From an uncultured bacterium (GTDB lineage: Bacteria > Bacteroidota > Rhodothermia > Balneolales > DATFMH01): a stretch of 64,000 nucleotides of DNA. The stretch is taken from the NCBI GenBank assembly GCA_963787205.1, contig CAWBCD010000021.1:92714-156713 (forward strand). The letters run 5' to 3'. The first letter of the stretch is position 1; each line of letters starts with the position of its first letter. The notes under the pieces were generated by a model. That model worked only from the letters and a program-made list of their open reading frames with translations. It did not search any database and was not told where the DNA came from. This document shows, one piece after another, positions 57,722-59,248 of the stretch. A program made the translations under genes and the position numbers.

Positions 57722-57741
57722 TTAAGTAATCATTTACTTAC
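57722..57741. promoter_or_regulatory. Palindromic box copy 1 (tTAAGTAA-TCAT-TTACTTAC), 18 nt upstream of the FmdE start codon
   Basis: The 19-nt core TAAGTAATCATTTACTTAC is identical to the copies at 58870-58888 and 59230-59248. Confidence 0.6.
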
Positions 57742-57820
57742 AATAGTGGATAAATTTTTTTACTTATCCTCTTTTACGATACGTTCAACAAAATGCCCTG
57801 TACGGGTATATATTTTCAGA

Positions 57821-58033
57821 TTAGTTTTTTTCAATATTTGTTTCTTGTCGAATATCATTCCATTCTTGTTCCAATGCGCACAATTCATCCAGTACATCAT
57901 ACTCATTCATCTTTTGGGTAAACCAGACGATATAGGAAACAAGAGTATCCTTATCAAAAGCCATCAGGTCGGTATGTTGACGGATTTCCTTCCGGATGGT
58001 TTTCCAATCTAAATTAAGAACGGAGTTTTTCAT
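57821..58033 (-). CDS. Hypothetical 70-aa protein
   Basis: Small acidic ORF between a beta-barrel gene and box copy 1. Confidence 0.4.
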   Translation of the reverse strand: MKNSVLNLDWKTIRKEIRQHTDLMAFDKDTLVSYIVWFTQKMNEYDVLDELCALEQEWNDIRQETNIEKN

Positions 58034-58222
58034 TTTGTTCCTCCTTCCAGGCTCTTATAATCGAATATGGAGAATAAGAGCAATGATGATTATTATTAGT
58101 ACCAACTTATTGATTTGTTGAATTTTTGCATGTAAACCTTCTGAAAGTCCATTGGGGAAAAGGAGTTGGTGACTCGATCACCAACTCCTTTTCGATTGTT
58201 AGCAGCTCCTGCCTTTCCGGGC

Positions 58223-58837
58223 TCAAAACCGGAGGGTTATACCTGCTGTGATTGGGAATGAGGTAACGGTACCAAAGCTCCTGCCCCCGGGAATACCCGC
58301 AAAATATTGGGTACTGCTGTGGGTCGCGAACATGGTATAGGCCATGCCCGATACGAACAGATCCACTTGTTTGTTTACATCATAACCGATCTTGGCACCA
58401 TAATTAATGGTGAAATAGGTCTGGGTAAAACTTCCCTTTGTAGAATAGCTGTCTGTATTGATTGTGGTAGCTCCTGCTCCGGCATTTAAGATTAACGACC
58501 AGGGAGTAACCTCCGGATTGGTCCATGACCAGCCTAACCCAGCAGTATAATGCCAAAGTTGCATATTCGGTGCACTACCTTTTCCTCCAAGCAGTTCGAC
58601 TTCTCCGTCAACACGGGCTTCAAAATACGGGGAAACGAAATAAGAGGCTTTGAGTCCCAAATCAAGACCTGCGTTTTCCACATCCGACAAAGCGGCGGAT
58701 GGTACACTCACACCAATCCGGCCCTCCAGGTTCCACGGATTATTTTGGGCATAGACCATGTTCACTGAAAAAAAGGCCAGCACCAGCATAATTGATAAGG
58801 TTGGTATCGTCCGTTTATTTGGTTTTGTAGTCATCAT
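58223..58837 (-). CDS. Small outer-membrane beta-barrel protein
   Basis: 204 aa with a signal peptide (...SVNMVYAQ), 8-strand-like alternating pattern and a terminal F. Confidence 0.65.
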   Translation of the reverse strand: MMTTKPNKRTIPTLSIMLVLAFFSVNMVYAQNNPWNLEGRIGVSVPSAALSDVENAGLDLGLKASYFVSPYFEARVDGEVELLGGKGSAPNMQLWHYTAGLGWSWTNPEVTPWSLILNAGAGATTINTDSYSTKGSFTQTYFTINYGAKIGYDVNKQVDLFVSGMAYTMFATHSSTQYFAGIPGGRSFGTVTSFPITAGITLRF

Positions 58838-58868
58838 AAGACTTCTCCATTTTATACGTTTATATTAA

Positions 58869-58888
58869 ATAAGTAATCATTTACTTAC
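58869..58888. promoter_or_regulatory. Palindromic box copy 2 (aTAAGTAA-TCAT-TTACTTAC), about 31 nt upstream of the beta-barrel gene start
   Basis: Identical 19-nt core. It overlaps the last codons of the 113-aa ORF. Confidence 0.6.
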
Positions 58889-59218
58889 TTTTTGGGTTAA
58901 ATTTTTTATTCTGGTAACAATTTCAAGTTTCAACGAATACATTCTCTTACAAAAATCAGTAACATTCAATTTCCCTGTATTCCATATCAGTTCCATATTG
59001 GCTGTAATTGGAACTCCCAGGGAAAGCATGGCCACCGCGTCTATGATCCCTTTGACGACATCGCACCGGGAAGTAAGATGCTGGGGAACAACTCCTTCTG
59101 ACTGACCATCTTTCCAAGCCAGATTCAGCATGGAAAAATCGTGGTCCACCTCGGAGATAATCTCCGAAACAGACTGTTTGATTTGTTCCTGACAAATTAT
59201 AGTTGAATCTCGATTCAT
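58877..59218 (-). CDS. Hypothetical 113-aa helical protein
   Basis: ORF flanked on both sides by palindromic boxes. No recognised motif. Confidence 0.45.
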   Translation of the reverse strand: MNRDSTIICQEQIKQSVSEIISEVDHDFSMLNLAWKDGQSEGVVPQHLTSRCDVVKGIIDAVAMLSLGVPITANMELIWNTGKLNVTDFCKRMYSLKLEIVTRIKNLTQKVSK

Positions 59219-59228
59219 GGCGATTTAT

Positions 59229-59248
59229 GTAAGTAATCATTTACTTAC
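59229..59248. promoter_or_regulatory. Palindromic box copy 3 (GTAAGTAA-TCAT-TTACTTAC, perfect 8-4-8), 10 nt upstream of the 113-aa ORF start
   Basis: Identical 19-nt core with perfect arms. Confidence 0.6.

Follow-up and report, generated by a model that had tools for sequence, protein, structure and literature searches.

A 19-nt palindromic box, present in three identical copies in a 64,000-nt stretch of DNA from an uncultured member of the Balneolales (GenBank assembly GCA_963787205.1, contig CAWBCD010000021.1, positions 92,714 to 156,713), is very probably the operator of a 196-amino-acid (aa) TetR-family repressor conserved in Ignavibacteria- and Balneolales-like bacteria, a reading to which we give a probability of roughly 0.85. 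We refer to the whole stretch as the window, and positions are those of the window unless a contig is named. An earlier interpretation made without database searches (the sequence-only reading) had proposed that a dimeric DNA-binding protein recognizes the box by its sequence, and both the linkage of the box to tetR genes in other genomes and the conservation of its palindrome argue for this view. The window itself holds a decayed copy of the regulator, and an intact gene lies beyond its right end.

The box, TAAGTAATCATTTACTTAC, which reads GTAAGTAAATGATTACTTA on the gene-bearing minus strand, occurs in the 64-kb window at 57723-57741, 58870-58888, and 59230-59248 (boxes 1, 2, and 3). No further copy was found in the window at up to three mismatches, the chance expectation from dinucleotide shuffles is 0.00 matches, and relaxing the scan to five mismatches added only two sites, at 48008 and 48791, each with five mismatches, that look like chance matches. 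The positions given in the sequence-only reading, and its claim that the motif occurs nowhere else in the window, thus hold even at three mismatches, and so does its description of an 8-4-8 inverted repeat that is perfect in copy 3: the 20th base is C only in that copy, making it a perfect 20-bp palindrome, and copies 1 and 2 have A and T at this base, which leaves arms of 7 bp. Distances from box to ATG are 19 nt for the first FmdE gene (FmdE1, start at 57703), 32 nt for a beta-barrel gene (58837), and 11 nt for a 113-aa open reading frame (ORF; 59218), within the 10-35 nt before minus-strand starts that had been reported. The three genes had also been called consecutive; they do share the minus strand, but a 70-aa ORF (57821-58033) stands between the barrel gene and box 1. 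No T-run follows any of the three copies, and no box is listed by a terminator scan, which rules out terminators, as had been claimed.

When GTDB genomes, one for each of 185,579 species, were scanned for the exact 19-mer, 43 loci were recovered. At 29 of these the box lies ~19 nt after the stop codon of a 196-aa gene, here called tetR, and an FmdE, TauE, or similar gene starts 10-120 nt after the box. These 29 loci come from metagenome-assembled genomes (MAGs) labelled Ignavibacteria, Ignavibacteriaceae, Melioribacteraceae, Balneolales, or “Bacteroidetes,” and nearly all of them have a second, slightly degenerate box, GTAAGTAAGTGATTAC[AT][TA]A, ~645 nt upstream and just 5' of the tetR start. 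We call the site 5' of tetR O1 (variant form of the box, GTAAGTAAGTGATTACATA) and the site 3' of tetR O2. About 10 matches in unrelated taxa look like chance or terminator hairpins. The exact box is found once or twice per species genome, always beside tetR or its target genes, rather than scattered without promoter association, the pattern that the sequence-only reading had associated with a generic repeat. A dispersed repeat of the repetitive extragenic palindrome or miniature inverted-repeat transposable element type (REP/MITE) was rejected on the same counts, together with the confinement of the three copies in 64 kb to one cluster. We also observed, in Desulfosporosinus sp. UBA8487 (L031, 7384-7402), a perfect 20-bp palindrome, GTAAGTAAATGATTACTTAC, 19 nt before a different 203-aa TetR-like gene (helix-turn-helix [HTH] TTREVAKRQGVSEATIFKHYKSK); this box in a Firmicute could be a distant relative of the box-tetR system or a coincidence.

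The association between box and tetR also appears when loci are chosen without reference to the box. In a set of 80 metagenome loci retrieved solely with the TetR protein, a box (up to four mismatches) lies within 90 nt 5' of the tetR ATG in 53 of 69 non-redundant loci (77%) and within 75 nt 3' of the tetR stop in 46 of 74 loci (62%), compared with 4 of 1130 control windows drawn from these loci (0.35%). O2 starts ~18-19 nt past the tetR stop in most related loci, and the box is present on both sides of tetR, at fixed distances, in lineages with TetR identity as low as 50%. The consensus is GTAAGTAA-RTGA-TTACTTAC, that is, GTAAGTAA-RTGA-TTACTTA(C); the half-site-mutated counterpart of GTAAGTAA is written GTCCGTAA. 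Genes 3' of boxes with at most three mismatches form a coherent set, with tetR (74), TauE (26), and FmdE (22), followed by OEP/RND (~8), barrel (4), NifX-like (3), and DGC (2) genes, and a radical-SAM gene and a PAP2 gene were found there as well. The canonical Ignavibacteria unit is tetR-FmdE-TauE-Porin_O_P-FmdE.

Seen against this arrangement, the three window boxes take on distinct predicted roles, all on the minus strand. Box 1 (57723..57741), an exact match directly 5' of the AAGGAG ribosome-binding site of FmdE1, is a predicted operator whose orthologous position in a syntenic contig (L044) holds a one-mismatch box and whose box-to-FmdE layout recurs at seven other loci (L015, L016, L021, L030, L033, L036, and L037). 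Box 2 (58870..58888), also exact, is the predicted counterpart of O2 and overlaps the 113-aa ORF at its TGA stop and the four codons before it. Box 3, which as the perfect 20-bp palindrome occupies 59229..59248, would be the counterpart of the autoregulatory O1; its 11-nt spacing matches that to intact tetR in L027 and L051.

Three representatives of the 196-aa regulator match Pfam TetR_N (PF00440) above the cut-off (E 1e-11 to 2e-9), TetR_C_4 (YsiA-like) scores 24.0 bits against a cut-off of 21 bits, and a precomputed PF00440 assignment exists for each of the 120 listed homologs, among them P0006, the 196-aa product of the intact tetR next to the window. An AlphaFold2 model of P0006 is all-helical, with 10 helices (pLDDT 87.1, pTM 0.82). 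Its top Foldseek matches are all TetR-family proteins, the best in the PDB being SlmA, Bacillus subtilis FadR, KstR2, and PfmR (TM ~0.8); SlmA, FadR (YsiA), KstR2, and PfmR are also the best phmmer matches (E 1e-10 to 1e-8). Identity to solved TetRs is ~20%, and database names for the regulator are all generic (“TetR/AcrR family”). The HTH, STRNLAxxxGxSEGAIFRHFxxK, is nearly invariant across the regulator family, which fits the near-invariant operator; the peptide pattern with which homologs were retrieved determined part of this HTH, and co-variation of HTH and operator is thus uninformative. In the ligand domain, C90 and C183 (motifs YLC and NFC) are invariant in 38 homologs of 68-95% identity, which hints at thiol- or metal-based sensing; the 113-aa ORF retains only the second of these cysteines, C183.

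Promoter geometry at O1 places the box where a repressor would be expected to act. Upstream of tetR the order is a consensus sigma-70 promoter, cTTGACA-N17-TAnnnT, then 0-1 nt, and then the box. TTGACA with at most one mismatch lies upstream of 41 of 56 O1 sites, starting at -30 or -29 from the box in 28 of the 41, and the hexamer at -7 to -2 fits TAnnnT in 37 of 56; the box would therefore span approximately -5 to +14, where repressors commonly bind. The O1 promoter in the window's own genome, on contig L127, reads TTGACA-N17-TATAAT-GAAAGTAAATGATTACTTAC. Another clade (L086-L090, L018, and L037) has the box between the -35 and the -10. A similar geometry can be drawn at O2, with a -35 TTGAAR in the final codons of tetR and an A6-7TTT spacer that is conserved. 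For Ignavibacteria-like organisms, these sites point to the use of canonical TTGACA/TATAAT promoters at box-linked genes.

The same sites bear on whether the box might instead work as an RNA hairpin in a 5' untranslated region (UTR) or between cistrons, influencing stability, processing, or translation. The box does fold into a hairpin of 7-9 bp at about -7 to -9.5 kcal/mol (z -0.9 to -2.7), it adjoins the FmdE ribosome-binding site, and read-through transcripts from tetR would hold O2. However, the folding energy of box 2 is unremarkable (z -0.9) and those of boxes 1 and 3 are moderate. Across aligned boxes, 81.5% of cells are paired compared with 81.2% in shuffles (a level equalled or exceeded by 129 of 500 shuffles), the covariation score is 0.082 compared with 0.073 (32 of 500), and only five cells are changed on both sides. 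O1 sites consistently have unpaired A-A at pairs 3-18 and 4-17 with the left arm unchanged, and the loop itself is conserved as RTGA. A transcript from the predicted O1 start, which falls inside the box, would lack the left arm; the distance from the box to the -35 is fixed, but that to the start codon varies from ~0 to >50 nt; and an Rfam scan of 57000-59600 gave no match. Pairing no better than composition, one-sided A-A mismatches, and a conserved centre point to a protein-bound palindrome rather than an RNA stem, and we regard a hairpin function as very unlikely.

Several observations weigh against the box being the operator of this TetR. The link between protein and site is drawn from comparative genomics; the scan by exact 19-mer overstates the invariance of the site; and three loci (L018, L028, and L037) have a box with no box-linked tetR within 8 kb. 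Promoter signals at O2 are weak, with TAnnnT at -7 to -2 in 8 of 39 sites, and a consensus promoter scan combined with inspection gave no convincing -35/-10 pair at the three window boxes, where our manual placements (TTGAAA-N17-AATTTA before box 2 and a degraded -35 before box 3) are speculative. A weak promoter may belong to O2 itself, or the site may control transcripts that read through from tetR, and the three window boxes may lie in 5' UTRs or act as roadblocks.

The indirect link and the boxes without a nearby tetR would also suit a different binder, of the Fur family or otherwise, with tetR as a mere member of its regulon. We consider this improbable, because the box flanks tetR on both sides at a fixed distance down to 50% TetR identity, the usual sign of an autoregulated local repressor, and because no other regulator gene is consistently nearby in the neighborhoods examined. 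The sequence-only reading had put forward a Fur-family metalloregulator on the strength of the box centre, TAATCATT, an 8-mer that is indeed common to the box and the Fur box (GATAATGATAATCATTATC); both sites are also AT-rich, palindromic, and 19 bp long. But the best register leaves 8-9 of 19 mismatches (10-11 of 19 matched), a level that ~18% of random 49-nt windows equal or better, and the symmetry centres differ. It is a TetR gene, and not one for Fur, that accompanies the box, and tblastn of Escherichia coli Fur against the window gave no match at E <= 1, so that the Fur proposal loses its footing and the TetR-family repressor remains the favored binder.

An intact copy of that repressor gene belongs to the same cluster. 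The Logan contig that encodes P0006, L127, overlaps window positions 62350-64000 at 100% identity over 1651 nt and extends past the window end, where it carries, in order, the membrane-fusion protein gene (MFP), OEP, a degraded FmdE, an exact O2 box, intact tetR, and O1. Converted to window-equivalent coordinates (66722 minus the L127 position), O2 lies at ~65774-65792, the intact tetR at ~65810-66400, that is, ~1.8-2.4 kb past the right end of the window, and O1 at ~66415-66433. The cluster therefore totals five boxes and one intact tetR, of which the window holds three boxes and a relic of the regulator. L044 has the order O-tetR(intact)-O-FmdE relic-OEP-MFP-RND-Trx-O-relic113-O-barrel-70aa-O-FmdE-TauE-porin-FmdE, where relic113 denotes the 113-aa ORF, and L045 agrees with it in the part that runs from tetR to the thioredoxin-like gene. 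The proposal of a local regulon that includes the RND/thioredoxin block gains from the box that precedes this block on L127. The statement that no obvious regulator gene is present in the cluster does not stand, given the intact 196-aa gene just outside the window and the decayed TetR regulator within it.

Two further features of this flank deserve mention. Directly after O2 of the intact tetR, both L127 (971-1075, window-equivalent ~65650-65750) and L044 (~3480-3570) contain a degraded FmdE with a 28-aa deletion and the changes HGH to HGP and GC to GH, which suggests that a tetR-FmdE module once stood here and received the RND operon by insertion. At the end of L127 past tetR (positions 1-29) are four tandem CAGTAAG heptamers, each holding the GTAAG core of the box; the contig end may be an assembly break at a repeat.

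By its alignment, the 113-aa ORF (58877..59218, minus strand) is a relic of a cognate TetR-family regulator, a decayed tetR paralog (tblastn E 6e-15). Residues 1-62 align to TetR 1-62 and residues 63-103 to TetR 156-196. About 93 aa of the ligand/dimer domain have been deleted, and the original stop has been lost, so the frame reads into box 2. The near-invariant HTH residues T31, R32, A44, F46, R47, F49, and K52 are all replaced, and no Pfam domain, including TetR_N (PF00440), was detected in the ORF. Compared with L044, where the single homolog of equal length (84% identity) is found, dN is the highest of the block and dN/dS is 0.55, against 0.04-0.37 for neighboring genes. The changes are concentrated in the N-terminal, formerly HTH-bearing half, which evolves fast (dN 0.148, dS 0.243), and the -35 before box 3 is TTGACA in L044 (TTGACA-N17-TACTTT) but CATACA in the window. 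A maintained mini-TetR was rejected because of this fast N-terminal half, the replaced HTH residues, and the mutated -35. The same-length homolog and a C-terminal half that is identical in the L044 relative do speak against a relic; the unchanged half may reflect recent shared ancestry or recombination.

Other remnants of tetR accompany this one. A tblastn search of the window with TetR matched only the 113-aa ORF, so no second full-length TetR of the box-linked family lies inside it. Alignment with tetR 3' ends shows that 57742..57800 (minus strand), next to box 1, is probably the stub of a third tetR copy, consisting of its few last codons (..FVERIVKEDK*) and the TAAAAAAATTTATCC spacer found ahead of O2 boxes in relatives; the alignment shows moderate similarity only. 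Elsewhere, the tetR of an Ignavibacteria-like MAG (L029, 7100-7688) is broken into two reading frames; this could be a frameshift pseudogene, and so perhaps one more decaying copy, or an assembly error.

These pieces can be assembled into a candidate history and mechanism. The ancestral module would have been O1-tetR-O2-FmdE-TauE-porin-FmdE. A TetR dimer, or a pair of dimers, at O1 would block RNA polymerase and so autoregulate tetR, and O2 would gate the downstream genes, either at a weaker promoter that partly overlaps the final codons of tetR or by blocking transcription that reads through, until a ligand releases the repressor; the mechanism as such is a textbook genetic switch. The window's genome would have come to hold three tandem modules, duplicated and eroded. 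Module A would comprise the intact tetR, the degraded FmdE, and the OEP-MFP-RND-thioredoxin operon, with tetR and its two boxes just outside the window; module B, the tetR decayed to the 113-aa ORF, followed by the beta-barrel gene; and module C, the tetR 3' stub before box 1, followed by the intact FmdE-TauE-porin-FmdE operon. All five operators would be served in trans by the one intact TetR, and selection maintained in this way would explain why the three window boxes stay 19/19 identical beside a decaying relic.

Two genomes hold two complete tetR-box modules each, L011 and L043 on the same 16.9-kb contig and L008 and L021 in the same MAG, with one module before TauE-type and the other before FmdE-type genes; module duplication is thus common in the box-tetR family. 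Such multi-copy modules, together with three tandem modules each bounded by a box and with tetR remnants at the junctions, could also mean that the box serves chiefly as a site for recombination or mobile elements (a cassette junction or a MITE/REP end) and marks points of rearrangement. Yet no recombinase or transposase adjoins the modules, there are no target-site duplications and no terminal repeats beyond the box itself, exact copies number only one or two per genome, and their position is fixed relative to a sigma-70 promoter and tetR. Homologous recombination between identical operators could yield tandem modules as a by-product. A site that serves mainly for recombination is, in our estimate, the least likely of the alternatives, and we continue with the box as a TetR operator.

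The presumed target operon behind box 1 (54660..57703, minus strand) consists, by Pfam, of FmdE1 (57062-57703), a TauE/TSUP permease (56304-57053), a Porin_O_P porin (55276-56319), and FmdE2 (54660-55262), the same four genes that follow tetR and its box in L128-L130, contigs from Ignavibacteria. Box 2 presumably acts on the gene at 58223..58837 on the minus strand, which encodes a 204-aa outer-membrane beta-barrel protein (Pfam OMP_b-brl, 26.7 bits, just below the cut-off of 28.7 bits). Directly after its stop, at ~58160-58195, a GC-rich hairpin (GGAGTTGGTGA-n5-TCACCAACTCC) with A4/T4 flanks, read from the letters themselves, looks like a bidirectional intrinsic terminator, which would leave the barrel gene as a one-gene unit behind box 2. 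The 70-aa ORF that follows (57821..58033, minus strand) has its own ribosome-binding site and no box of its own; a Pfam search with it gave no match, and with 93% aa identity in L044 and a dN/dS of 0.37 it is probably a real small gene. Before this ORF, L044 has a 24-nt insertion of GTCAATGA-like tandem repeats (~11130) that the window lacks (~58104). Upstream of box 3, again by Pfam and on the minus strand, lie a thioredoxin-like gene (59308-59898), an RND pump (59923-63039), and the MFP (63036 to beyond 64000), which are the distal genes of the operon that starts with OEP behind the intact tetR and O2 outside the window.

What the repressor senses can be approached by analogy. The anion porin and the TSUP permease suggest an oxyanion or sulfur compound as effector, and the FadR-like fold suggests a CoA thioester. 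It is possible, if doubtful, that the TetR subfamily, with its two invariant cysteines and FadR/SlmA-like fold, is the sensor of an undescribed oxyanion- or sulfur-compound pathway built around an anion-selective porin, TSUP/TauE, and a pair of FmdE zinc-ribbon proteins, joined in some cases by RND, NifX-like, DGC, or radical-SAM genes and conserved in Ignavibacteriota and Balneolales-like lineages, and that the promoter-operator module of this subfamily extends into the tetR 3' end. In that event, duplicated modules would necessarily carry tetR stubs along, and the 113-aa remnant could be such a stub; given the C-terminal half that is unchanged in its relative, it might even be kept to carry the promoter or to pair, in truncated form, with the intact repressor.

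The box and its TetR offer a portable handle on the widely conserved FmdE-TauE-Porin_O_P-FmdE set, and in the window's genome on an RND pump as well; the ligand of the repressor would tell what the cluster is for. In the literature searched we found neither FmdE and TauE treated together nor the box sequence. The locus is also an example of operators outliving the adjacent regulator, with two of three tetR copies decayed and all operators intact, likely because one surviving copy acts in trans.

Members of the TetR family combine an N-terminal HTH with an all-helical ligand/dimer domain, bind a palindromic operator of ~15-20 bp that overlaps the promoter, and are autoregulated. The classical TetR/tetO pair shares with the box system the HTH, the all-helical domain, and a palindromic operator, and its operator position at the promoter and its autoregulation have a predicted counterpart at O1. 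The tetR and tetA genes are divergent, whereas the genes of the box system are co-directional, and the operator sequences are unrelated. By structure and sequence, the best matches of P0006 and its relatives are SlmA, FadR (YsiA), KstR2, and PfmR. SlmA is a nucleoid-occlusion factor; FadR, KstR2, and PfmR are acyl-CoA sensors that govern the catabolism of lipids or steroids. The box regulon, however, contains no fatty-acid gene, and identity to these four proteins is ~20%, which places the box-linked TetR in a separate subfamily. The SlmA site (GTGAGTACTCAC) (PMC3020112) resembles the inner core, GTAAGTACTTAC, of some box variants (L069 and L099), a similarity that we take only as a lead.

The layout closest to ours among known systems is that of CmeR/cmeABC in Campylobacter jejuni, where the regulator gene immediately precedes its target operon in the same orientation and transcription is repressed by binding to a 16-bp inverted repeat in the intergenic promoter region (PMC4488513). 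Likewise, the intact tetR directly precedes the OEP-MFP-RND operon, with a box between them. The box system differs in its longer site (20 bp, 8-4-8), in a second, autoregulatory operator at the promoter of tetR itself, in a regulator with ~20% identity to solved TetRs, and in core targets that are FmdE, TauE, and porin genes rather than a drug pump.

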